Part shown: positions 2,528 to 57,800 of the stretch, piece by piece
Layout of the letters: each line of letters starts with the position of its first letter
Numbering within the stretch: the first letter of the stretch is position 1
Assembly (NCBI GenBank): GCA_040879645.1
Contig: JBBDJY010000016.1
Coordinates: 11,064-75,063 of the forward strand
Source of the DNA: Minisyncoccota bacterium
GTDB lineage: Bacteria; Patescibacteriota; Minisyncoccia; Phycocordibacterales; XYD1-FULL-46-19
DNA: 64,000 nucleotides
Direction of reading: 5' to 3'
Made by a program: the position numbers and the translations under genes
The notes under the pieces: model-generated
Told to the model about the DNA's origin: nothing
The model's input: the letters and a program-made list of their open reading frames with translations, nothing else
Databases searched by the model: none

Positions 2528-2769
2528 AATTGATGATTCCAAAACCAAAACTGGCAAGGTGACACCTTGACAGTTTTGGTAGGGGGGATTTTTGTCCGGT
2601 TTCCACCGGCTTTTTTTGACCTTGACAAAACCATAAATATTTGCCAGTAATTGAATCAGACAACTTGGCCTTAGGCCCAGTTTTGACATAGGAATAAGCG
2701 AAACTTTTCGCGAAAATACACACACGGAACACGGACGAAAAAAGCCGATTTATCGGCAGGAGGTGAGTG

Positions 2770-4950
2770 ATGAAGAAGTTTATGGTGTTGTTTTTGGTGG
2801 TTGGACTGGCCGGTTTTCTGATCGGTTGTCCGCCCGCCGAGCGGACCGTCATCGTCGAGGGTTACCTTGACATCGACGGTTGCGATCAGGCGACTCTCGG
2901 GGCCGAAATCATTCGGCCGGAGTTTCCGGCCGAGGCAACCTTTGACCTCTACAAAGGTGACCGGTCCTCCATGCGTCCTTGGGCGCGGGTGGCTTACAAG
3001 GCCGGCGAAGACGTTGAAATCTACGAAGCGACGGCCGTTGACGGTCAGAAGCTTTTTCTTCAACGCCATGTGATGCTCTGGAACGGACAGTGGTATTACA
3101 CCACTCACCGGTCATTTCCTCATCAGCCGATCTATGTGATCGGTCGGCCGGTGATTGGCCGGGTGGATTATGATGTCAGTACTTTGGTCCGGGCCGTTCT
3201 CTTTGTCGGAATTTTGTCTCATTTAGGCAATATCGGCGATGGTGACGGTGCGGATGCGCCTTGGTTTGCCTTACCTGATCGCAGTAGTGATTGGGAATTG
3301 CCGGCCTTTGCTCTGTTTCGGATTACTGATCCGGCACCGGCCAGTTACCAAATTGTGGCCAGAGTGCCGGGCTGGGAGGCCGGAACGACCGAACGATTTA
3401 CCGGCATTGTCGGCAATCCTCATGGTTGTCCGCCACCGGGACCGGAAACGGTATTCGTGCCGGACACCAGTAACTTGCCGGAAGACGAAGCGGTGGACTT
3501 GGTCAACAGTTTCGACTTGATAGTCGGAACGATTACCCGGGTTTGCAGCGATACCGTCGCTACCGGTCGGGTGATTCGTTCCGTTCCGCCAGCCGGGGCT
3601 TCGGTACCGGTGGGGACGATCATTGACTTGGTTGTTTCCAGTGGGCCGTGTCCGCCAATAAATGTCACCGTTCCCGATTTTACCGGTGGAACGGAAGACG
3701 ATGCTCGTGATCGTCTTGACGACTTAGGTTTTGACGTCTCGGTGACCCGTGTTTGTAGCGACACCGTCGCTGTCGGCCGAGTCACCAGTCAAGATCCCTC
3801 AGCTGGGACTTCGGTACCGGTGGGGACGATCATTAACTTGGTGGTCTCGGATGGGCCGTGTACTTTGCCCAACTTGACGCTTGAGCTTGGTCTCAACCAG
3901 ACTGAATTTCAGGTTGGTGACACGGCGATTTTGACGGTCGAATGGTCCGGTAGTGGTACGCCGTTTGATTTTACGGCAACCTTCCCGGATGCGGTCGGCG
4001 TGGCTGGTCGGGTCTTTGAAAATGGCCTGATCGAGTTCTCGGTTTTGCCCGAGTCGGCTGATTCGTCGGTAGAACTTTTTACCGATGGCCTTGGTCACTT
4101 GGAGATTCACCGACGGTTGTCTTCGGATACCGGTGGCGAATCTTTGCCGATTTTGGTCCGGGTGATTGGGGTTGATGATCAGGAGGTGACGCGGGAAATT
4201 TTCCTGCGTGTCAATCGGCCTGATGTCACTGTTCCTGACTTTGGGGGCCGGACCGAGGACGAGGCTCGTGATGTGTTGGAAGGCTTGGGCCTTGGTGTAT
4301 CGGTGACCCGTGTGTGTAGCGACACTGTCGCTACCGGCCGGGTCATCAGTCAAGACCCTCCAGCCGGGACTTCGGTACCGGCGGGGACAATCATTAACTT
4401 GGTGGTCTCGAGCGGGCCGTGTGCGCCGGTAGAAATGCCGGTGCCGAATATTGTTGGCTTGCCCGAAGCCGAAGCGCGGTCGGCGATTGCTGATGCCGGC
4501 TTGAACCTCGGTGCGATTACTGAGGTCTATCATCCGACAATGACCGCCGGCCGGGTAACTTCTTCCAATCCGGTGGCCGGGACAATTGTACCACCCGGAT
4601 CAGCGGTTGATTTTTCGGTCTCACTCGGACCGGAACCTCCGCCGACCTTGAGTCTTTTGCTTGAGGTTTTGAATTCGACCAATCGTGTTTTTACGGTTGG
4701 TGACATTGTTGCTGTTCGGGCAACGATACTGGGTGGTCAGTCGGGATTCGAAGTCCGGATTGCTTGGCCGAACGCGACGCTCAATTCGTCGACCGGCCAG
4801 GCGCGAGTCTTTGACTTTGCCCAAGTGGCGACCAGTGCCACCTACTCGTCTGGAGCTGAGCCAATCTTTTTGCCCGTTCGCGGGCGAGTAATTGATTCGG
4901 CCGGAGCGGTGGCTGATGCGGAAGTGTTTATCCGCATTAACCCGAATTAG
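2770..4950 (+). CDS. Lipoprotein with at least four tandem PASTA-like domains (repeat unit VPDFTGGTEDDARDRLDDLGFDVSVTRVCSDTVAVGRV..SVPVGTIINLVVSxGPC)
   Basis: RBS GGAGG 7 nt upstream of ATG 2770; lipobox LIGC; repeated PASTA-like modules in translation. Confidence 0.7.
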   Translation: MKKFMVLFLVVGLAGFLIGCPPAERTVIVEGYLDIDGCDQATLGAEIIRPEFPAEATFDLYKGDRSSMRPWARVAYKAGEDVEIYEATAVDGQKLFLQRHVMLWNGQWYYTTHRSFPHQPIYVIGRPVIGRVDYDVSTLVRAVLFVGILSHLGNIGDGDGADAPWFALPDRSSDWELPAFALFRITDPAPASYQIVARVPGWEAGTTERFTGIVGNPHGCPPPGPETVFVPDTSNLPEDEAVDLVNSFDLIVGTITRVCSDTVATGRVIRSVPPAGASVPVGTIIDLVVSSGPCPPINVTVPDFTGGTEDDARDRLDDLGFDVSVTRVCSDTVAVGRVTSQDPSAGTSVPVGTIINLVVSDGPCTLPNLTLELGLNQTEFQVGDTAILTVEWSGSGTPFDFTATFPDAVGVAGRVFENGLIEFSVLPESADSSVELFTDGLGHLEIHRRLSSDTGGESLPILVRVIGVDDQEVTREIFLRVNRPDVTVPDFGGRTEDEARDVLEGLGLGVSVTRVCSDTVATGRVISQDPPAGTSVPAGTIINLVVSSGPCAPVEMPVPNIVGLPEAEARSAIADAGLNLGAITEVYHPTMTAGRVTSSNPVAGTIVPPGSAVDFSVSLGPEPPPTLSLLLEVLNSTNRVFTVGDIVAVRATILGGQSGFEVRIAWPNATLNSSTGQARVFDFAQVATSATYSSGAEPIFLPVRGRVIDSAGAVADAEVFIRINPN

Positions 4951-24003: not shown

Positions 24004-24076
24004 GCCAGCATAGCTCAGTTGGTAGAGCAACGGTTTTGTAAACCGTAGGTCGTGGGTTCGAATCCCTCTGCTGGCT
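24004..24076 (+). tRNA. tRNA-Thr (anticodon TGT)
   Basis: Cloverleaf read by eye: acceptor GCCAGCA/TGCTGGC, D-arm GCTC..GAGC, anticodon stem ACGGT/ACCGT with loop TTTGTAA, T-arm GTGGGTTCGAATCCC; no encoded CCA. Confidence 0.8.
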
Positions 24077-24530
24077 CACAAACAAAGAGCCGAAAGCGGA
24101 TGCTTTCGGCGATTATTGTTTGTGCCAGTAGAGGGATGAGAACGGCGGAGCGCGCGAAGCCGACCGAGTGGTAACGAGGTCGAGCGCGAGCCGTGTCCCG
24201 CGGCACTTCATATTTTGTGAGTGGAATGAAACAAAATATGTTAGTGACCGTCAGGACGAATCCCCAGCTTCCTCACAAACAAAGAGCCGAAAGCGGATGC
24301 TTTCGGCGATTATTGTTTGTGCCAGTAGAGGGATGAGAACGGCGGAGCGCGCGAAGCCGACCGAGTGGTAACGAGGTCGAGCGCGAGCCGTGTCCCGCGG
24401 CACTTCATATTTTGTGAGTGGAATGAAACAAAATATGTTAGTGACCGTCAGGACGAATCCCCAGCTTCCTCACAAACAAAGAGCCCTCGGCGGATGCTTT
24501 CGGCGATTATTGTTTGCCCACGGACTGGAA
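24077..24530 (+). repeat. Tandem direct repeat: two complete 197-bp units plus a partial third immediately 3' of tRNA-Thr; each unit ends in a degenerate copy of the tRNA 3' end (pseudo-att)
   Basis: Units start at 24077, 24274 and 24471 (period 197); the ORFs at 24168..24371 and 24365..24568 are artefacts of this repeat. Confidence 0.85.
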
Positions 24531-40528: not shown

Positions 40529-40551
40529 TTGTCAAGGTGACACCTTGACAA
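40529..40551. promoter_or_regulatory. 23-bp palindrome TTGTCAAGGTGACACCTTGACAA
   Basis: Perfect copy of the motif family, between rnhB and rpmF. Confidence 0.5.
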
Positions 40552-47749: not shown

Positions 47750-48088
47750 ATGGCAGAGAAACACCAAGACCAGGAATTTTTAGAGACAATTGTCAAAATG
47801 TTGGTTGATCATCCCCAAGACGTTGTTGTTGACCGCAAGGTTGATGAAATGGGCGTCTTGATGACTTTGGATGTCAATCCGGAAGATATGGGCAAGATTA
47901 TCGGCCGCCAAGGTAATACCGCCAAGGCGATCCGAACTTTATTACGAGTTGTCGGAATGAAGAATAATGCTCGAGTCAATTTGAAGATTAACGAACCGCC
48001 GGGAGGCTCACCGGTCAAGCGCGAAGAAAAAGAGACGATTTCAACTTCTCAATCGGTTGATCAGGCGATGAACGATTTGAAACTTTAA
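47750..48088 (+). CDS. KH-domain RNA-binding protein (UPF0109/YlqC-like)
   Basis: KH GxxG motif IIGRQGNTAKAIRTL; conserved position after rpsP. Confidence 0.8.
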   Translation: MAEKHQDQEFLETIVKMLVDHPQDVVVDRKVDEMGVLMTLDVNPEDMGKIIGRQGNTAKAIRTLLRVVGMKNNARVNLKINEPPGGSPVKREEKETISTSQSVDQAMNDLKL

Positions 48089-48097
48089 ACCAAAAAT

Positions 48098-48128
48098 AAA
48101 CAAAAAAGCCCCAGCCGGGGCTTTTTTG
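48098..48128 (+). terminator. Rho-independent terminator (aaaaaagccccagccggggcttttttg)
   Basis: Hairpin flanked by A- and T-runs. Confidence 0.65.
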
Positions 48129-48184
48129 TTTATCGGCCGTGTTTTTAATTAAAATTGGCAGGTCTATCTGTCCTACCTATCGGT

Positions 48185-48213
48185 GGGCCCATCCGACCGG
48201 GTCATCCGGGCGG
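48185..48213. repeat. GC-rich palindromic element copy E2 (gggcccatccgaccgggtcatccgggcgg), intergenic
   Basis: Shares the core CCGACCGGGTCATCCGGGCGG exactly with the gatB copy. Confidence 0.8.
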
Positions 48214-48264
48214 ATAGGGATTGGCGAATATTTGTTTTATTGCTATCTTAAAATTATTAAAGAT

Positions 48265-48909
48265 ATGACCACTTTTCACCTCATCAGTATTTTCCCCAAG
48301 AGCTTCACTTCCTACATTGAATGCTCGATCATCGCTCGGGCGATTAAGGCAAAAAAGATTGCCGTCAAATTTTATGATCCGCGAGATTATACCGCCGACA
48401 AGCATCGTTCGGTTGACGACCGACCTTATGGCGGGGGGCCGGGAATGGTGATGTCGGCCGAGCCGATTATTTTGGCGGCTCGGGCGGCTCGTTGGCGCCG
48501 ACCAAAAGCCAAAGTTTATTTACTGGCAACGACCGGCAAACAATTTACCAATCAATTAGCCGGTCGCTTGGCTAAGAAAAATGAAGATATCATCATTATT
48601 TGCGGCCGGTATGAAGGCATTGATGCTCGAGTGAAGAAAATTTTGCGGGCCGAATATTTAACTATCGGTCCCTATGTGTTGACCGGCGGCGAATTGCCGG
48701 CTTTGGTGGTGATTGATGCTATCGCTCGACAAATTCCCGGTGTCTTGGGTAAAACCGAATCGCTTGAAGAGAGTCGGCCGGCCGGGCGAGAAGTTTATAC
48801 TCGACCGGAAGTGATGGTGATTGACGGTAAAAATTATCGCGTACCGAAAGTGTTATTATCCGGCGATCACAAAAAAATCACCGACTGGCGACAAAAGCGC
48901 CATCGGTAA
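48265..48909 (+). CDS. trmD: tRNA (guanine37-N1)-methyltransferase
   Basis: MTTFHLISIFPKSF..YGGGPGMVM motifs; ORF from 48139. Confidence 0.9.
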   Translation: MTTFHLISIFPKSFTSYIECSIIARAIKAKKIAVKFYDPRDYTADKHRSVDDRPYGGGPGMVMSAEPIILAARAARWRRPKAKVYLLATTGKQFTNQLAGRLAKKNEDIIIICGRYEGIDARVKKILRAEYLTIGPYVLTGGELPALVVIDAIARQIPGVLGKTESLEESRPAGREVYTRPEVMVIDGKNYRVPKVLLSGDHKKITDWRQKRHR

Positions 48910-48916
48910 AACCACA

Positions 48917-48964
48917 GGCTTTTTGTTTGTTCGATTAAGGCCGGAATTTTGTCAAGGTGTCACC
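48917..48964. promoter_or_regulatory. Conserved intergenic module copy 1 (GGCTTTTTGTTTGT..GGAATTTTGTCAAGGTGTCACC; half palindrome)
   Basis: About 80% identical to the modules at 52513-52560 and 54550-54603. Confidence 0.6.
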
Positions 48965-49107
48965 GCTGATAGCCAACGCGCCGATGCGTTTTGGCGCGCG
49001 GACGGAAGTCTTCGGCCTAATTCATGCCAGCAGGGATATTCACCGGCGCGATTTTCTAGATAATTATCTCTTGGCGCGAAATTTAAGTAATGGTATTATA
49101 AATAATA

Positions 49108-51726
49108 ATGAAAAAAATAAATCAGTCTTATCTCGTAGGGTTTGGTAAATCTAATTTTGCCTTCACCCTAATTGAGACGCTCTTGGTCATCTCCATCATT
49201 ACTCTCTTATCCAGTTTGATCTTGCCTAACCTGAACCTTGTCCGAAACAAAGCTCTGGTGACGGTGGCGAAAGAAAATCTCCGTCAATTGGAAAATTCTC
49301 TGGCGTTGTTTGAGTTTGATCACGGTTATTATCCCGGTCAGCCCGGCCGAACCGAGAGTAATCAAGATGTTGGTGGTTGGAGTCCTGCCCCAGGGGGACT
49401 CCAAGCCAGTCTGGTGCCCAAGTATATTTCTAAATTACCCGATAATCCGCAGATCACCTATTCTTATAAGCTCGAATCTTGCCCAGGTAATCAAAATCAA
49501 AATCAGGGTTGTAGCTTTAGTTTATCTGCTTATTTAGGTAGTGGAAACAATCATAGAAATAATGAAGAAATCGATGATAAGATAGGCGGGGTTGTTGTTT
49601 CCAACGAAGATCGACGGCCAGATCTCGGTAAATTTGATATCCCTTCAATCGAAGAAGAAGTTAAAGACGAAGTAATCAAGATCGCCAAGGAAAACGAAGA
49701 ATGTTTTGATGGATTAGATAACAATGAGGATGGCAAAATCGACTTTGATGATTTTGGTTGTTTTGGTCCCAATGGTCAAGAGACTGATGCGGATTATGGC
49801 TGGACAACCTTTATCCCTCATCCGACAACCAGAATTGTTTATGTTAGCTCAAGCGAGGGAAATGACTCTAATAACGGTTTAAGTCCGTCAAAGCCGGTGA
49901 AAACGATTTCGAAGGGTCTTTCGTTGATACGGAATAATCACCCCGACTGGTTGCTTTTACGACGGGGCGATACTTGGGGGAATGCCGATTTTATAGACAG
50001 AAATGGTCTGTCTGAAGAGCATATGATAGTCGTTAGTTCTTATGGTGAGAATACGGAACGACCTAAACTTGTTTTTAGTACTAATAAGGGGTTACGTCTT
50101 TGGGGAGTAAAAAATTTTGCTCTGGTTGGATTGGAGATCTATCCTCAAAAACGTGATCCGAATTCTCCCAAGTTCCTCTCGTCGACTAGTGTTAGCGGGG
50201 GGATATCTATTCTCTTTAAAAATGAGAACGTTTTACTGGAAGATAATCATCTCCGTTATGGTGGCTTAAACATTCAAGATTACGGGGGAGGTTGGGAGAA
50301 TGTCAAAGTCAGACGCAATGTAATCGCTTATTCTTATAGTACTGATAGCCATGCGCAAGGCATTTTTACCAAAGGTAAAGGGAAGTTGTTGATCGAAGAG
50401 AATGTCCTGCATCATAATGGTTGGAACGATGATTTTCGGTTTGAAGTTATTCCCGGCAACAGTGACCCGGCGGCTTGGGCGTCTATCACTGATGGTCATT
50501 TCCAGATTAATCTGGCGACATCCCGTATCACTACTAGCCCTTTTAAAATTTCGGGCGTCAATTTCACTGGCGATACCACGATGTTTGATGTTGCCCAAAC
50601 TATAGAAGACGCAATTAATGTTGCGGTGGGTAAACCTGGGGCAGTAACTTTTGATTGGACTGGCGCGGTCTTTGTTTTGAAAAGCGACACTTTTGTTTCT
50701 AGCGACAAATACTCTCTAGCGACTTTATCTGGCGGTGAAGGGACAAATATCTCTCTTGATACGTGGCTTAATCGGTCGTCTTTACGTAAGCCGGAATCTA
50801 CTATTTTCAATCGTAATATGTATTTAAGTTACGGCTATGGCAACACTACACTGCGGGGAAATATTGATTCCAAAGGCGCTTCTGGGGGCGTTCAATTGCG
50901 AATGGGTGGTCTGATCGAAGACAATTTGTTTTTACGTAATCCCATCTCTATTACTGTTGGTCACAAGCAAAATCCGGCTAAGTCAACCATCGGTGGAATG
51001 ATTAGAAGGAATGTTATTTTGGGGGCTAGAGATATTGATACTCAAGCTCAAGGCGGAGGTATTTCGGCTGAATCAACGAACACTAAATCTTATGGTCACA
51101 ATTATTTTGACGGTATTTATATTTACGATAATATTATTGCTCACAACGAATTAGGTACTGGTAATAGTAAGGCCATTAGTTTAGGAGCTGCTTCTGGTTC
51201 TAAAAACGCTCATATTTATAATAATGTTGTCTATAATTGGCGCAATAACACCGGTAGTGCCACTGACCATCGTGGTTCTGGTCTAGATTTATATGTGCCG
51301 AGTGATTTTACTGGAGGGTCTGTCTACAGTAATTGGATTATTCAGCCAAACAAAGGCTTTGTGATTTCTACTAGTGAGAGTAGTGCCCGTAAGTTTAACT
51401 TTTACGATAATGCCTATTTTAGTACCAGTGGGCATCCTGGAACCTGGAGCAGTACTTGGTTTCGGTTTGGTGGGTCGACAATTGTCCCTTTTACCGACTG
51501 GGTTAATATCACTGGCGACACTAGCACCAAACTTACAGCTGTTCCTAATTTCCGTGACCCCAAGCGAGATATTGATACTTATGCCGGCTCTTTGGGATTT
51601 GCGCCAACCTACGAGGCCTTTATGGAGGAGGCAATGAAACAGTCTCGCTTCAATTGGCGACCAGAATTGACCGCTTATGCGGTTAATGAATATATCAGGG
51701 AAGGTTTTGAAATTGTTAATCAATGA
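49108..51726 (+). CDS. Giant secreted protein: N-terminal prepilin-like hydrophobic segment (FTLIETLLVISIITLL) fused to an approximately 800-aa predicted right-handed beta-helix domain
   Basis: Type IV pilin-like N-terminal motif; repeated N/D/G-rich beta-helix-like segments (NNVVYNWRNN, DNIIAHNELG). Confidence 0.6.
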   Translation: MKKINQSYLVGFGKSNFAFTLIETLLVISIITLLSSLILPNLNLVRNKALVTVAKENLRQLENSLALFEFDHGYYPGQPGRTESNQDVGGWSPAPGGLQASLVPKYISKLPDNPQITYSYKLESCPGNQNQNQGCSFSLSAYLGSGNNHRNNEEIDDKIGGVVVSNEDRRPDLGKFDIPSIEEEVKDEVIKIAKENEECFDGLDNNEDGKIDFDDFGCFGPNGQETDADYGWTTFIPHPTTRIVYVSSSEGNDSNNGLSPSKPVKTISKGLSLIRNNHPDWLLLRRGDTWGNADFIDRNGLSEEHMIVVSSYGENTERPKLVFSTNKGLRLWGVKNFALVGLEIYPQKRDPNSPKFLSSTSVSGGISILFKNENVLLEDNHLRYGGLNIQDYGGGWENVKVRRNVIAYSYSTDSHAQGIFTKGKGKLLIEENVLHHNGWNDDFRFEVIPGNSDPAAWASITDGHFQINLATSRITTSPFKISGVNFTGDTTMFDVAQTIEDAINVAVGKPGAVTFDWTGAVFVLKSDTFVSSDKYSLATLSGGEGTNISLDTWLNRSSLRKPESTIFNRNMYLSYGYGNTTLRGNIDSKGASGGVQLRMGGLIEDNLFLRNPISITVGHKQNPAKSTIGGMIRRNVILGARDIDTQAQGGGISAESTNTKSYGHNYFDGIYIYDNIIAHNELGTGNSKAISLGAASGSKNAHIYNNVVYNWRNNTGSATDHRGSGLDLYVPSDFTGGSVYSNWIIQPNKGFVISTSESSARKFNFYDNAYFSTSGHPGTWSSTWFRFGGSTIVPFTDWVNITGDTSTKLTAVPNFRDPKRDIDTYAGSLGFAPTYEAFMEEAMKQSRFNWRPELTAYAVNEYIREGFEIVNQ

Positions 51727-51830
51727 CCACTAAATTAATTATCGGGAACTGGAAGATGAATCCGGCGACCCTGAAGGAGGCCAAGGCGATTCTGGCCAAC
51801 ATCAAGAAGGAGAAGAGAAATGAAAATGTT
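51723..51830 (+). pseudogene. tpiA: 5' remnant of a triose-phosphate isomerase gene (MTTKLIIGNWKMNPATLKEAKAILANIKKEK...), truncated after about 30 codons
   Basis: Highly characteristic TIM N-terminus IIGNWKMN; reading frame diverges into non-TIM sequence and stops; ATG overlaps the upstream stop (ATGA). Confidence 0.5.
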
Positions 51831-52455
51831 AGTGACCCTGGTCTTGGTGTCGATGTTCGTGTTCGGTGGTGCTTTTGCCGACTTCTTGGTCAATAGTCAG
51901 GGGGAAGTGAAGGAGAATGAAGGATGGCGTCCGTTGACCGAGTTCGAGCAGGAGGCGGTCAACAACCCCGGTACGGAAGTGCCGATCATCGACAGTCAGG
52001 TCAAACTCGACTATCGTCGCGATGGTTTCTGGCATCTGTTTCCCATCCGCGCTTACGAGCAGGTCGTGGTTTACGGTGGTGGCTAATTACAAACCAAAGA
52101 TCAAGCCGGAGAGGTGGTGGGGGAACGGCAGATTGCTTGTCATATCATCTTGGGCTTGATTGCTATCGGTCTGATGATGGTGGGTAATCTTTTGTATTTT
52201 AAGTATGGGGGAGACGAGAAAGCCTACGTCTTTACCGTGCCCGCCTTCCTTTTCGCCATCTTTGCTGCCGCCTTTGCCACTATCTTTATCGTTTTCAAGG
52301 CTGGAGATCTTGCTAATTTCCTTGCTATGGTTTTTGCCTTTGCTCTCGCCCTCGCCCTCTGCAATCTGACGGTCAATTTTAAAAACCGAATACTCTATTA
52401 TGGTCTTTCGGTGACCTTCTACGTCCTGATGGGAGTTGCCTTGTTTACTTGGTAG
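51820..52455 (+). pseudogene. Secreted-domain plus 4-TM membrane protein interrupted by a single in-frame TAA (52084-52086); paralog of the intact gene at 53869-54501
   Basis: ORFs 51820..52086 and 52114..52455 are in the same frame; alignment with the paralog continues across the stop (GGG*LQTKDQ vs AGRLQIRYQ). Confidence 0.7.
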
Positions 52456-52486
52456 TTTGGCTCTGATGACATCGAAAGCTTTTTGG

Positions 52487-52560
52487 CCCGTGATTTCCGC
52501 AAGGAAATCACGGGCTTTTTGTTTGTCCGGTTAAGGTTGGAATTTGTCAAGGTGTCACCA
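52487..52560. promoter_or_regulatory. Conserved intergenic module copy 2: terminator hairpin (cccgtgatttcc..ggaaatcacggg) + GGCTTTTTGTTTGT.. + half palindrome TTGTCAAGGTGTCACC
   Basis: Direct reading. Confidence 0.6.
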
Positions 52561-52642
52561 CTGACGGCCAAAGTCGTTTAAATAGAGTAAATTTTACAAA
52601 ATAATTTGCTAAATCTTACAAATCAGCTATAATGGTCATATT

Positions 52643-53359
52643 ATGGCTACTTCCAAGTCGTTGCGGGAAAAAAGAAAAAAGATGGGCTTGTCACAAACAG
52701 AGTTGGCCGGTCTTTTAGGGGTGTCTCGACCAACGCTCGCCAAAATAGAAAAAAACGAAAGACCGTTAAATAAAGTTGAGACAGAAAAACTCAAAGACAT
52801 TTTTGAGTCGTTTGAGCTTGATCATCAGACACAAGGCGACATAAGAATCAATATCCCGGCCGGAAATATCAATAAGTTTAAACAAGTTTTATTATATATT
52901 TTGGAAAAAGTCGGTGCCAAACCGAATGTGGGCATGACGGTAGTGTACAAACTTCTGTATTTTATTGACTTTAACTACTACGAGAAATATGAGACCCAGT
53001 TAATGGGGCTTACTTATTTTAAAAATACTCATGGACCGACACCGCGCGAATTCAAAAAAGTGGTTGACGAAATGAAAAAATCAGGTGAATTGGTGGAGGT
53101 GGGGTCAAAATCCTTTGCTTATGATCAGAAAAAATTTTTACCTCGGCTTAAGTCCGATTTATCAGTTATTTCCGGTCAAGAGCTTGAAGTTATTGATAAT
53201 GTCTTAGACAAATATGCCGATCGGACAGCTAAACAGTTATCTCTTATGACTCATCGTGATATGCCTTGGAAGGCCACCAAACATGGCGAGAACCTTGATT
53301 ATGAACTGGCTTTTTATCGGCCGGATGAATTCTCTGTTCGGGAATATGAAGAATTGTAA
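52643..53359 (+). CDS. HTH (XRE-family) plus Panacea/DUF4065-like antitoxin (PanA/SocA-like)
   Basis: N-terminal HTH LSQTELAGLLGVSRPTLAKIEKN; C-terminal KLLYFIDFNYY..G.TYFKNTHGP Panacea-like pattern. Confidence 0.65.
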   Translation: MATSKSLREKRKKMGLSQTELAGLLGVSRPTLAKIEKNERPLNKVETEKLKDIFESFELDHQTQGDIRINIPAGNINKFKQVLLYILEKVGAKPNVGMTVVYKLLYFIDFNYYEKYETQLMGLTYFKNTHGPTPREFKKVVDEMKKSGELVEVGSKSFAYDQKKFLPRLKSDLSVISGQELEVIDNVLDKYADRTAKQLSLMTHRDMPWKATKHGENLDYELAFYRPDEFSVREYEEL

Positions 53360-53362
53360 TTA

Positions 53363-53713
53363 ATGGCCGATATGATTATTACTGAAAGTGAGGAGTTTTG
53401 CCGAGATTTCAAAAAACTCCTTAAAAAATACCGAACTCTCAAGGGTGATTTTGAGGTGGCTAAGAAAGCTATTAGTGCCGAGCCGACCGGTGATGGTAGT
53501 AAACATTGGCATATCATCAAACAGAAAGACGAGGCCTATATTTTGAAAATTCGAATGATGTGTCGAGCGGTTAAGGGGGCGTCTTTCCGCCTGGTGTACT
53601 TTTATGATGGCAAGACGGTCGAAGTTATATTTATTGAAATATTTTTTAAGGGCCGGAAAAGTCTACCTAATCAAAAGAGGATTAAGCGGATGGTTAAAAA
53701 ACTAATGGGTTGA
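53363..53713 (+). CDS. Putative toxin partner (116 aa; RelE/ParE-like fold suspected)
   Basis: 4-nt gap after the antitoxin; C-terminal pattern FRLVYFYDGKTVEVIFIEIFFKGRK resembles the RelE/ParE core. Confidence 0.5.
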   Translation: MADMIITESEEFCRDFKKLLKKYRTLKGDFEVAKKAISAEPTGDGSKHWHIIKQKDEAYILKIRMMCRAVKGASFRLVYFYDGKTVEVIFIEIFFKGRKSLPNQKRIKRMVKKLMG

Positions 53714-53868
53714 ATTTTAGATAGGAAAGTGTCAGATAAGGTGGACGAGTCCGAACCATTGACATAATCATATTATATAGATATAGTCCAAAAAGGTATT
53801 TTAAATTGCACTTTGTCACAAAGTCACAGATAAACCCTTTTCAAAGGGACAACTGAAGGAGAAGAAAG

Positions 53869-54501
53869 ATGAAAAAGTTAGTGATTTTTGCCCTGACTTT
53901 GATGTTCGCCTGTGGCGAAGCCCAGGCCACCGAATTCTCGATCAATGATCAAGGAGAAGTGAGGCAAGAGGAAGAAGGGTGGCGTCCGTTGACCGAGCTG
54001 GAGCAGGAAGCGGTCAACAACCCCGGTACGGAAGTGCCAATGACTGCTGTGGGGATGATTGAGTATCGTCGAGACAGTCTCTGGTATTTTTCTTCGATTG
54101 TAAACTACCAACAAGTCTTGATCTATGAGGCCGGCCGGTTGCAGATTAGGTATCAGACCGGAACGGTCGAGACCAGGCATTTCGGGAGGCATTTGGTGTT
54201 GGCTTTGGTCGCCATCTTTATGGTGATGGCAGGAAACGTGTGGAGAATAAAAAAGGAAGAAGATTTTCACATCTTCCCCATCCTCGGCGCTATCTTCGTC
54301 ACCTTCTCTACCTTTCTTCTCGCCTCAATTGACGCTGGCACACCGAGCGGTCTTCTCTGCCTTTTCGCCTTCGCCGCAATCGTCGTTTCTTTTTTTAGCG
54401 TCGTTCTCGCTGGAGATGAGAAAACGAACAGAGCCTTTTACTGGTCGGCTTCGGGGGTTTTCTACTTCATGCTGGTAATGGTCATTTTTGCCGTCTGGTA
54501 A
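53869..54501 (+). CDS. Secreted-domain plus 4-TM membrane protein (intact paralog of 51820-52455)
   Basis: Signal peptide; shared 23-aa stretch EGWRPLTExEQEAVNNPGTEVP with an about 70-nt near-identical patch; C-terminal TM bundle ending in W. Confidence 0.65.
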   Translation: MKKLVIFALTLMFACGEAQATEFSINDQGEVRQEEEGWRPLTELEQEAVNNPGTEVPMTAVGMIEYRRDSLWYFSSIVNYQQVLIYEAGRLQIRYQTGTVETRHFGRHLVLALVAIFMVMAGNVWRIKKEEDFHIFPILGAIFVTFSTFLLASIDAGTPSGLLCLFAFAAIVVSFFSVVLAGDEKTNRAFYWSASGVFYFMLVMVIFAVW

Positions 54502-54523
54502 TGGCCGTGTTGAGAATTTTTTG

Positions 54524-54603
54524 CCCCGTGATTTCCTTTTGGAAACCACGGGCTTTTTGTTTGTCTGTTTGAGCCGGAATTTGTCAAGGTGACACCTTGA
54601 CAA
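54524..54603. promoter_or_regulatory. Conserved intergenic module copy 3: terminator hairpin + GGCTTTTTGTTTGT.. + full palindrome TTGTCAAGGTGACACCTTGACAA (54581-54603)
   Basis: Direct reading. Confidence 0.6.
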
Positions 54604-54807
54604 ATTGGATGGGGTGGACGAGTGCAAAAATTTGACAAATATTCGTCCTTACGCTACACTGGTTCCACAACGGCAAGATTGAGTTATGGTTGGGCCGGTT
54701 TAAGTATCTTGCTAAATCTCTCCATTTGATTTGCGACACGCCTTCAATCTCAATTGAAGGGGACAATTTTTGTTTTTATTATCGGCGATTTTAATAATTC
54801 AATTATT

Positions 54808-57800
54808 ATGCAACAAAAATATTTTTCTCGAGCCAAACCGGCCTTGGCCGAAATTCCTAACTTGGTTGAGGTCCAGCTCAAATCTTATCAGTGGCTGGTG
54901 ACCGAAGGCCTGAAGGATGTCTTTGAGGAGTTTTCGCCGATTAAAGATTACTCGGAGAAAAAATTTGAATTAAGTTTTACTCATTTTGAATTAGACAAGC
55001 CGAAATTTAGCGAATACCACGCCAAAGCCAATAAATTGTCTTATGATGCCCCGTTGCGTATTCGGGTTAAATTAAAGAATAAGACTTTGGGTCAGGAAAA
55101 AGAGCAAGAAATCTTCTTGGCTGATTTTCCGGTGATGACTGCCCATGGTACTTTTATCGTCAATGGTATTGAGCGAGTGGTGGTGCCGCAATTATCTCGC
55201 AGTTCCGGCGTTATTTTTTCGGCTAATACTTTGCGGGGCCGGAAACGTTTTGGCGCCAAGATTATTCCCGGTCGGGGTGCTTGGGTGGAAATTGAAACCG
55301 AAGCTGATGGAGCGATTTATGTTCGCATTGACCGCAAGCGTAAGTTTCCAGTAACTTCCCTGTTGCGGATTTTTGCCGATATTGAGGGCCGGGCGACTGG
55401 CGACAAGGAGCTTTTGGCCGTTTTTGACAAGAAAAAGATTGATCTCGGTTATGTTGAACGGTCGTTGGAAAAAGATCACGCCAAAACGGCGGAGGAATCT
55501 TATGTCGAAATCTACAAACGCCTGCGAGATGCCGATTTGGCGACGGCCGCCAATTCCCGGGAGTTTTTAACCACTTTATTCAGCCGGGAAAAATATGATT
55601 TCTCGGTGGTTGGCCGGTTGCGTTTCAATGAGCGTTTTGGCAAGCCGGTTGGCGAGAAAATCCGCGAAGACCGGGTAATTACTTTTGATGACTTGGTGAC
55701 GATTGTGACTCATATTATTATACTAAACGACACTAAGGATGCCAAAGAAGATGATATTGACCACTTGGGTTTCAGGCGAGTGCGAGTGGTTGGCGAAATG
55801 TTGCAACAAAAATTGAAAGTCGGCATGACGCAAATGAAGCGAAACATCCAAGACCGGATGTCGACGGTTGATTCGACGACGATGTTACCGATTCAAATTA
55901 TTTCTCCCCGTCCGCTTCAAGCTCGACTGAAAGAATTTTTCACTACCAATCAACTGTCGCAATTTATGAACCAGGATAACTTTCTCCATGAAGTTGAACA
56001 CTTGCGGACGCTTTCGGCTCTCGGTCCCGGTGGTTTGACTCGCGAGCGAGCCGGTCTGGATGTCCGTGATGTCCACACTTCCCACTATGGCCGGGTTTGT
56101 CCGATTCATACACCTGAAGGACCAAATATCGGTTTGATTTTGCGTTTGGCCACTTACGCTCGCTTAAATGAATTTGGCATTATTGAGGCGCCGTATCGGA
56201 AGGTCAAGAACGGCAAAATTACCGAAGAACTGGTTTATTTAAACGCGCTGGAAGAAGAAAAATACAATATTGCTCATGCCGGTGTCGCTTATGACGAGGC
56301 CGGCCGATTATTGGATGAGATGGTGGAGGTACGCAAAGCCGGCCGACCGACTTTGGCTGAAGTGGCCAAGGTTGATTTTATCGATGTCGCGACCAATCAA
56401 GCCTATTCGATTGCCACCTCAATGATTCCGTTTTTGGAACACAATGATGCCAACCGCGCTTTAATGGGTTCCAATATGCAGAAGCAATCGGTACCTTGTG
56501 TTAAACCGGAAGCGCCCTTGGTGGCGACCGGGATTGAAGAAAAAGCTGCCCGTGATTCTGGCCGGTTGGTTTACGCTTTACGAGCCGGCACGGTGGCTTA
56601 TGCCGACGGCAAAAAGATTTTAATTGACGCCGGCGAAAAGAAATTTGACGAATACCTATTGATTAATTATTCCAAAACCAATGACAGCACGATTTTTCAT
56701 CAGCGGCCGGTCGTTCGGCCGGGGGATAAGGTTAAAAAAAGTCAACTTTTGGCCGACGCTTCTTCCAGTGTTGACGGACAAATGTCGGTTGGTCAAAACG
56801 CCCTGGTTTGCTTTATGTCTTGGTATGGCAGTAATTACGAAGACGCGATTATTATTTCCGAACGGTTGGTTAAGGAGAATAAATTCTCGAGTATTTACAT
56901 TGAAGAATTTACCGTTAATGTCCGGGATACCAAGTTGGGGCCGGAAGTGACCACTCATGACATCCCCAATGTCGGCGAGGTTAAATTAAAAAACTTGGAC
57001 GAAGAAGGGATTATCCGGGTCGGAGCCGAAGTTAGTCCCGGTGATATTTTAGTCGGGAAAATCACACCGAAAGGCGAAACCGAATTAACGCCGGAAGAAC
57101 GCTTATTGCGCTCAATTTTCGGCGAAAAGGCTCGGGATGTTAAGGATTCTTCCTTACGAGTGCCTCATGGCAAACGGGGACGAGTCATTGGTGTTAAAGT
57201 CTTTTCCCGCGAACAAGGTGACAAATTGGAATCAGGGATTATTAAGCGTATTTATGTTCAAGTGGCGCAAATGCGTAATGTTTCGGTTGGTGACAAGTTG
57301 GCCGGCCGGCACGGTAATAAGGGGGTTATTTCCCGGGTCTTACCGGAAGAGGATATGCCTTATTTGGCCGATGGTACGCCGGTGGATGTTATCCTAACGC
57401 CTCTAGGTGTGCCATCCCGGATGAATTTGGGCCAGATTTTTGAAATGCACTTGGGCCTGGCCGCCCACACTCTCGGTTATCAGGCAATTAGTCCGGTCTT
57501 TATGGGAGTAACCGCTGATGAGGTCAAGGGTGAATTGGTCAAAGCCGGTTACGATCAATCCGGCAAGGTCAAATTATATGACGGTTATACCGGTGAAGCC
57601 TTTAATCAGGATATTGCTATCGGTTATATGTATATTCTGAAATTGGCCCACATGGTTGAAGACAAAATCCATATGCGTTCGATTGGGCCGTATTCGCTTA
57701 TTACCCAGCAACCGCTCGGCGGTCGCAGTCAAGGTGGCGGTCAGCGTTTTGGCGAAATGGAAGTTTGGGCTTTGGAAGGTTACGGTGCCGCTTATGCTTT

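Follow-up and report, generated by a model that had tools for sequence, protein, structure and literature searches.

A nonsense-interrupted membrane-protein paralog and a Panacea-type toxin-antitoxin pair at one locus of a Candidatus Paceibacterota genome

Two paralogous genes for a small membrane protein flank a Panacea-type toxin-antitoxin pair in a metagenome-assembled genome (MAG) labelled Candidatus Paceibacterota bacterium at NCBI (assembly GCA_040879645.1). The locus (tags WDZ85_03885-03910) lies on a 78.6-kb contig, JBBDJY010000016.1, of which a stretch of 64,000 nt, the window, was analysed; positions below are those of the window, and the features described at the locus are on its plus (+) strand. 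The first paralog, copy A (51820-52455), is interrupted by one in-frame TAA, and the second, copy B (53869-54501), is intact. The reading preferred here, at a probability of about 0.6, combines four elements: old paralogs, the insertion of a mobile PanAT toxin-antitoxin module into the space separating them, a nonsense mutation of recent date in a promoter-less and otherwise pristine copy A, and a short gene conversion tract. Taken as a whole the locus is normal genome turnover, with nothing mechanistically new and no new system.

Two paralogs, one of them interrupted

Read in a single frame, copy A has 211 codons and belongs, apart from its one interruption, to the same membrane-protein family as copy B. 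The 210-aa product of copy B, recognised from its open reading frame (ORF), a family search and an AlphaFold2 (AF2) model, has a predicted signal peptide, a beta-rich ectodomain and four transmembrane (TM) helices. By BLASTP, with the stop written as X, the two products are 40% identical (E value 4e-41) and the alignment crosses the stop unbroken. This agrees with an initial annotation, made from the sequence letters, which described the genes as paralogous and copy A as broken by exactly one in-frame TAA with the alignment running straight across it. Homology between the copies begins at the ribosome-binding site, at 51806, and three islands of high DNA identity lie within it: the ribosome-binding site and start (51806-51859 versus 53855-53908), a 74-nt patch, and the 3′ terminator with the repeat module that follows. 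Both NCBI and the Logan assembly of SRR27977663 call copy A as two coding sequences (CDSs) of 88 aa (51820-52086) and 112 aa (52117-52455).

The TAA (52084-52086), which is followed by T, stands opposite R90 of copy B in the alignment and marks the turn of a long predicted beta-hairpin that leads into the first TM helix (TM1). In the corresponding family column 29 of 51 members carry Lys and eight carry Arg. Because the consensus is Lys, a single AAA>TAA transversion would be the simplest origin of the stop. Eleven other distinct family genes could be read as DNA, 10 of them complete and one running off its contig end, and none contains an internal stop. Homologues are uninterrupted and the stop falls within the conserved domain, as is characteristic of a pseudogene. 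The best reading of the TAA is an ordinary nonsense mutation with recent pseudogenisation, one of the two options that the initial annotation had offered, since it appears to be a single genuine interruption in an otherwise intact family member. The mutation would have divided copy A at the turn of the ectodomain hairpin into an 88-aa secreted fragment and a remainder with four TM helices, presumably with loss of function. According to the structural model, placing the stop at the turn would deprive the 88-aa product of both the second strand of the hairpin and the membrane anchor.

The state of copy A weighs against this reading. Like ordinary nonsense pseudogenes, it is one of two paralogs and carries a single premature stop; unlike them it is undecayed, and it is closer to the family norm than its partner. 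Against a profile built without copy B it scores 195 bits (with Lys at the stop) and copy B 146.5 bits. Its two halves score 94.9 and 75.6 bits against the family hidden Markov model (HMM), each more than the matching half of copy B. All seven near-invariant residues of the family are retained, and there is neither a second stop nor a frameshift. Copy A thus fits the family better than copy B does, and the relaxed constraint expected of a pseudogene is not seen. Given this lack of decay, either the lesion is very recent, or it is a variant or an error, or the split gene is still working.

If the TAA were a sequencing or consensus error, or a variant of a minority strain, copy A would really be an intact and functional gene of 211 aa. 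The otherwise flawless sequence, with its high profile score and complete set of near-invariant residues, is what such an explanation predicts, and a single T>A change at the TAA restores Lys. The Logan assembly, however, agrees with the window base for base across 48820-52593 and 52587-55776, that is, over 3.8 kb in the contig that includes the stop, and it has the same TAA and the same two gene calls. The match rules out an artefact of a single assembler, and substitution errors are rare in Illumina consensus sequence. It does not reach as far as population polymorphism, of which it is no test if the MAG and Logan share reads. An error or variant is accordingly unlikely, though with enough in its favour to be kept in mind.

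About equally unlikely is a working split gene, in which an 88-aa secreted ectodomain fragment would be made alongside a separately initiated protein with four TM helices. Both halves are still family-like by their profile scores, and NCBI and Logan annotate two CDSs. A GGAG resembling a Shine-Dalgarno sequence (52108-52111) lies 5 nt before a GTG at 52117 and 28 nt past the stop, so that reinitiation would be possible. The GGAG stems, however, from family-conserved Gly-Glu codons and may be fortuitous. In the model of copy B the break would come just where a two-strand hairpin (73-87/90-105) turns back on itself, so that the N-terminal fragment would lose its partner strand and its anchor, and every other family gene seen whole as DNA is one uninterrupted ORF.

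Programmed readthrough was the second option of the initial annotation. The frame does stay open for 123 codons past the stop, as it would if the TAA were read through or recoded to give the full-length protein at a low level. TAA is nevertheless the dominant stop codon, closing 27 of the 38 long ORFs; among stop tetranucleotides TAA-T is the most frequent (n = 14), and in E. coli termination is most efficient at this signal. No suppressor tRNA was found in the window, where tRNA-Thr is the sole tRNA, and an Rfam scan of 48000-55500 returned nothing credible. As TAA is the usual stop and no relative has a stop at this position, programmed readthrough is unsupported and can hardly be credited. 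The preferred explanation of the TAA stays with a plain and recent nonsense mutation.

The two copies also appear to differ in how they would be expressed. A sigma-70-like site precedes copy B at 53759-53787 (TTGACA-17-TATAGT, matching the consensus at 11 of 12 positions), and copy B would be expressed from this predicted promoter of its own. Consensus matching found no promoter-like site upstream of copy A. Because copy A abuts the remnant of another gene and has no promoter-like site, it would be transcribed solely by read-through from the gene for an 872-aa protein upstream. Consensus matching also places a promoter-like site before rpoB (54632-54660). A GGTGGACGAGT box occurs at 53735-53764 and again at 54608-54637, some 10 nt upstream of the TTGACA -35 elements of the copy B and rpoB promoters; it may be an upstream element shared by the two promoters, or the promoter region may have been duplicated.

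A short tract of near-identity

The initial annotation noted a nearly identical patch of about 70 nt in the two otherwise diverged genes and suggested gene conversion; the analysis confirms the patch and favours conversion. The patch covers 51913-51986 in copy A, where it encodes ENEGWRPLTEFEQEAVNNPGTEVP, and 53968-54041 in copy B, and the two versions are 91% identical over 74 nt. Nucleotide identity is 92% within 51919-51984 versus about 56% in the rest of the gene, and 21 of the 22 residues encoded by this interval are the same in both copies. A 59-nt core pattern with four wildcard positions matches both copies without mismatch and has no third match in the window.

The resemblance extends to sites that the protein sequence leaves free. 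At identical residues with degenerate codons, the same codon is used at 17 of 20 positions in the patch versus 30 of 61 elsewhere (Fisher p = 0.004), and the probability of at least 17 of 20 identical codons is 9e-5 under independent draws from the codon usage of the genome. In other genomes the codons of the motif differ freely, which argues against a nucleotide constraint acting throughout the family. The amino acids point the same way. Other members match copy B at 52% of the patch columns on average, and copy A shares the copy B residue even in columns that only 4-18% of the family match (G37, Q46, V49, N50 and T54). Since the identity includes both synonymous sites and residues that vary in the family, purifying selection on the motif does not explain it, and short-tract gene conversion fits best. 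Conversion would nucleate in the only segment with enough DNA identity, a segment kept similar by the conservation of its amino acids. The pattern resembles known concerted evolution by short-tract gene conversion in that identity, including that at synonymous sites, is raised between diverged paralogs on the same strand 2 kb apart. It differs in that only two sequences are available, too few to give the event a direction or a date.

Some points count against conversion. The boundaries of the patch were chosen after it had been seen, and the conversion statistics come from two sequences only. In addition, the patch contains an 8-bp perfect inverted repeat, GTTGACCG-N13-CGGTCAAC, in both copies (51933-51969 and 53988-54024), and the corresponding fold is more stable than most synonymous recodings (fraction at or below the observed value 0.010 for copy A and 0.034 for copy B). 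This makes selection at the level of the nucleic acid an alternative, in which the patch would be conserved as a functional RNA or DNA element, formed by the GTTGACCG-N13-CGGTCAAC hairpin and a second small hairpin, and no conversion would have taken place. From the 5′ arm of the first stem to the end of the second hairpin the two copies differ at four nucleotides, each of which falls within the loop of the first stem or in the outermost pair of the second hairpin. A 6-bp version with other third-position bases can be drawn, by eye, for two other family genes (L001 and L006). The same recoding test applied to 10 other family genes, however, gave fractions of 0.03-0.67 with no consistent excess of stability, and the complementarity is largely forced by the encoded amino acids (Thr/Val, Leu/Asn and Pro-Gly/Val-Pro codons). 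Such an element would also leave unexplained the family-variable residues that copy A and copy B have in common. An RNA hairpin as the cause of the patch was set aside, its support being weak and not general across the family, and a conserved nucleic-acid element is altogether improbable.

A further possibility is that copy A is not dead but a silent cassette, promoter-less and stop-containing, which swaps short segments with the expressed copy B by gene conversion. The idea is very unlikely; if it were true, the locus would represent a minimal system for surface-protein variation in an episymbiotic bacterium of the candidate phyla radiation (CPR).

The membrane-protein family

Homologues of the paralogs do exist. 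An exhaustive HMMER search of 1.84 billion representatives, clustered at 50% identity, with a profile of both copies returned 125 proteins with an E value below 1e-3, of which 70 lie below 1e-10; almost all have 190-230 aa and match from end to end. The family came to light only through this exhaustive search: a word-indexed search with the membrane protein returned only itself, and one with a 52-sequence profile returned only four. No model in Pfam, NCBIfam, PHROGs or PADLOC matches the family. Scans of genome and metagenome contig collections with the two-copy alignment gave no match, and scans of genome and metagenome contigs with a nine-sequence alignment gave one and six loci, respectively, three of which are the P0006 locus and one L010. 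No orthologue of either copy turned up in these collections or by protein search. A viral origin was considered and rejected, as no family member was found in IMG/VR. Taxonomy is available for two members: the window itself (Paceibacterota) and P0006, which comes from a Patescibacteria MAG from Hainich groundwater.

In an alignment of 52 sequences the consensus runs from a signal peptide through N..GEV, WR.LT..E..A..NPG.EVP, R.DFFH and Y..VVVF.DGK..T..K.G to a TM1 ending in SN, variable Ala-rich helices, the last of which contains K.Y...S..FY. Seven residues are near-invariant (G29, E45, A48, G53, E55, P57 and Y199), and the 23-aa motif picked out by the initial annotation is the most conserved part of the whole family of roughly 125 clusters. 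The AF2 model built from this alignment (predicted local distance difference test, pLDDT, 83.9) has a signal-peptide helix at residues 2-14 with a cleavage-type site (AQA/AFA), a beta-rich ectodomain of about 85 aa (residues 23-105) in which the motif forms a helix (43-50) and a loop, and a long hairpin with strands 73-87 and 90-105 that continues directly into TM1. Four helices follow (107-127, 135-154, 160-181 and 184-208). The predicted topology is therefore close to the signal peptide, ectodomain of about 90 aa and four TM helices read from the letters.

The order of a signal peptide, a beta-rich extracellular domain and four TM helices recalls the pentameric ligand-gated ion channels, and chains of glycine and GABA-A receptors are among the weak Foldseek matches of the model. 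In contrast to those channels, whose ectodomain has about 200 aa, the ectodomain here has about 85 and there is no sequence relationship. The best Foldseek match has an E value of 0.42, a probability of 0.35 and a TMq of 0.31, within a range of E values of 0.4-1, and nothing significant was found for the membrane protein in the PDB. The likeness is a gross resemblance only and does not amount to a structural match. As a guess, the family may act as oligomers in the cell envelope, with the ectodomain motif as the binding site for a ligand or partner. A bolder version, related to the silent-cassette idea and sharing its very low probability, sees the family as a novel class of envelope proteins, small and resembling receptors or channels, that contact the host through the WRxLT..E..A..NPGxEVP motif.

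Gene contexts elsewhere are informative as to the company that the family keeps. Seven other distinct contexts were available and none adjoins a Panacea pair. In the three long enough to judge, with about 1-6 kb on each side, the family gene is single-copy amid housekeeping genes. One family member stands between murA and an S41 peptidase gene and another between ftsZ and ftsA; others are next to uvrA, upstream of rpsL-rpsG, and after rpsG with a PemK toxin gene 366 nt further downstream. One short metagenomic contig (L005) carries two family genes in tandem (3-197 and 393-1076) with a spacer of 195 nt, and the C-terminal ends of these genes are nearly identical (KAYWIASLVFYIC). Tandem duplication thus recurs in the family, and homogenisation possibly does so too.

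A Panacea-type toxin-antitoxin pair between the paralogs

The two genes between the paralogs constitute, by sequence, a Panacea-type toxin-antitoxin pair, the toxicity of which is predicted. They follow a promoter-like site identified by consensus matching (TTGCTA-16-TATAAT, 52606-52633). The antitoxin gene (52643-53359) encodes 238 aa with an N-terminal XRE-type helix-turn-helix (HTH) followed by a Panacea (SocA/DUF4065) domain, and is annotated by NCBI as a SocA-domain antitoxin. In Pfam the matches are to HTH_3 (6.6e-11) and to SocA_Panacea, PF13274, over residues 102-210 (7.8e-19; 69.1 bits with a cut-off of 25.7). The toxin gene (53363-53713) has 116 codons from its first ATG. NCBI and Logan both place the start at 53372, and the resulting product of 113 aa is more likely; the gap between the two genes is 3-12 nt. 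The initial annotation was right that the paralogs flank an XRE-HTH/Panacea-like antitoxin and a putative toxin, on the evidence of both Pfam and the predicted fold, but the length of 116 aa that it gave for the toxin is probably three residues too long.

The toxin matches no curated toxin model in Pfam (to E 0.1), NCBIfam, PADLOC or PHROGs (to E 1), a phmmer search of PDB sequences found nothing relevant, and its homologues, which are 52-66% identical, likewise have no Pfam domain. Its assignment comes from structure prediction. The AF2 model (pLDDT 87.7, predicted TM-score 0.80) has a beta-alpha-alpha-beta4-alpha arrangement, with a strand at residues 2-5, helices at 7-19 and 23-36, four strands and a last helix at 101-112. 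The top 24 Foldseek matches in the PDB are all RelE, YoeB, HigB, YafQ or ParE, with probabilities of 0.85-1.0, target-normalised TM-scores of 0.45-0.71 and E values of 3e-3 to 8e-2. The modelled fold is of the RelE/ParE type, with the characteristic beta-alpha-alpha unit followed by a four-strand sheet, and invariant basic and aromatic residues (K, R, H and Y) are present. It differs from the members of that superfamily in lacking a sequence-profile match, in having an extra C-terminal helix and in its modest Foldseek E values. The model does not distinguish the action of a RelE-like RNase from that of a ParE-like gyrase poison.

The HTH-Panacea architecture has been reported for 343 PanA sequences (Kurata et al. 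2022, PMC8832971). The pair resembles PanAT systems in its Panacea antitoxin with an N-terminal HTH, in the small toxin gene directly after it and in the conservation of the pair in other genomes. It differs in that its toxin family has no model in Pfam, NCBIfam or PADLOC and its toxicity and neutralisation are predicted. In another genome (L014) a homologous toxin follows an HTH-Panacea gene with no member of the membrane-protein family nearby. A contig predicted to be viral in IMG/VR (L024; 2418-3360 and 3662-4513) carries a relative of the toxin with 36% identity and a Panacea antitoxin devoid of the HTH, with an integrase gene immediately after them, which shows that this type of toxin-antitoxin pair travels on mobile elements.

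Composition sets the pair apart from its neighbours. The toxin-antitoxin module has a GC content of 38% (40-43% at third codon positions, GC3) versus 50% for the paralogs (GC3 60-62%). This difference, together with the recurrence of the pair in places without the membrane-protein family, points to an independently acquired mobile module that is no part of a cassette. Copy A and copy B are probably old paralogs that once stood in tandem, an ancestry for which the tandem pair of L005 provides support, and a mobile two-gene module with an HTH-Panacea antitoxin and a toxin of RelE/ParE fold would have landed in the spacer between them.

The initial annotation had taken the paralogs, the toxin-antitoxin pair and the terminator modules as one compact membrane-associated accessory cassette, the parts of which would function and move together. 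They do lie close together, similar modules end each segment, and another family member is found 366 nt upstream of the PemK toxin gene mentioned above. The comparative evidence runs the other way: none of the seven other contexts has a Panacea pair, the three that can be judged have housekeeping neighbours such as murA, ftsZ/ftsA and rpsL, the pair occurs elsewhere without the family (L014 and L024), the difference in composition is sharp, and both module and palindrome also occur at unrelated sites. A single cassette is very improbable, and the claim is not supported.

Two points weigh against insertion of the module between existing paralogs. No close relative showing the ancestral state of the locus was found by protein search or by the scans of genome and metagenome contigs. 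Moreover, the two Logan contigs meet at 52587-52593 with an overlap of 7 nt only, and neither runs from the copy A module across into the toxin-antitoxin operon, so that the link by which copy A brackets the pair together with copy B is provided by the MAG assembly alone. The Logan contigs also break at 55776 within rpoB, where no repeat is seen, so that the break is probably not meaningful.

The surroundings of the locus

The order of genes is rpsP, a KH-domain gene, trmD, the gene for the 872-aa protein, a tpiA remnant, copy A, antitoxin, toxin, copy B, rpoB, rpoC and dnaG. The 872-aa protein, taken from the ORF list (49108-51726), has a pilin-type N-terminal motif. Its match to the type IV pilin-like N-terminal methylation motif is weak (E 0.016, below the Pfam cut-off), and a match to DUF3383 (E 6e-5), also weak, is the sole further one in Pfam; the protein has a large C-terminal region and is a singleton cluster in the protein collection. 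The tpiA remnant (51723-51812) retains approximately the N-terminal 29 aa (MTTKLIIGNWKMN...) and matches positions 1-32 of the Pfam TIM profile with an E value of 8.9e-4. It opens with an ATG that shares bases with the stop of the 872-aa gene, and its 3′ end runs straight into the ribosome-binding site of copy A. The remainder of tpiA was not found in the window by tblastn, for which an E. coli TpiA sequence served as the query and matched only the fragment at 51723-51812. This suggests that tpiA was destroyed here by rearrangement or insertion; copy A sits at a rearranged spot beside another gene remnant.

After each paralog comes a strong hairpin terminator and then GGCTTTTTGTTTGTC and GGAATTTGTCAAGGTGWCACC. 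The intrinsic terminator after copy A has a 14-bp stem and then a T-run (52485-52526), and the hairpin after copy B lies at 54523-54555. The repeated module has 60-70 nt and begins inside the 3′ arm of the hairpin. A first copy lies directly after trmD (48909-48976). The second (52505-52571) consists of the 3′ arm of the copy A terminator, GGCTTTTTGTTTGTC and a degenerate half palindrome, GGAATTTGTCAAGGTGTCACC. The third, after copy B (54543-54603), ends in a perfect 23-nt palindrome, TTGTCAAGGTGACACCTTGACAA (54581-54603). The same perfect palindrome, TTGTCAAGGTGWCACCTTGACAA, is found at 2505-2527, 40529-40551 and 54581-54603, with a copy at 2551-2573 that has three mismatches and half palindromes at 48948-48964 and 52543-52559. 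It is intergenic, carries TTGACA on both strands and would not be expected even once by chance. Since the module also follows trmD and the palindrome lies between unrelated genes, they represent a dispersed intergenic repeat that is not specific to the paralogs. The view that each paralog is followed by the same terminator and palindrome thus holds for the shared module; the complete palindrome is present after copy B only. The palindrome may represent a REP-like element or a site at which a regulator binds, and the module may have served as a substrate for recombination in the interval between trmD and rpoB.

An integron-like array with the modules as attC-like sites was considered and rejected, since the palindrome stands between ordinary genes (2505 and 40529) and no GTTRRRY core was seen by eye, no formal attC model having been run and no integrase search made in the window. 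Two 727-aa ORFs (301-2484 and 2767-4950) were compared as a possible second pair of paralogs split by palindromes and proved unrelated. Elsewhere in the window, a 197-nt tandem repeat (2.3 copies, 96% identity) at 24059-24516 adjoins tRNA-Thr (24004-24077). The repeat unit starts within the 3′ end of the tRNA and resembles the repeated att-like duplications of integrative elements.

Conclusions

Nonsense codons in paralogs, short conversion tracts and insertions of toxin-antitoxin modules all belong to routine genome dynamics. The region illustrates how a CPR genome can carry gene remnants, here those of tpiA and copy A, and a mobile module in the interval between trmD and rpoB. Its value, which is modest, lies in two undescribed families. 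One is an uncharacterised membrane-protein family without a Pfam or NCBIfam model and with a sharply conserved ectodomain motif, which could be registered as a new family. The other is a previously unmodelled toxin family, predicted to adopt the RelE/ParE fold and partnered with a Panacea antitoxin, which would lengthen the list of PanA partners.

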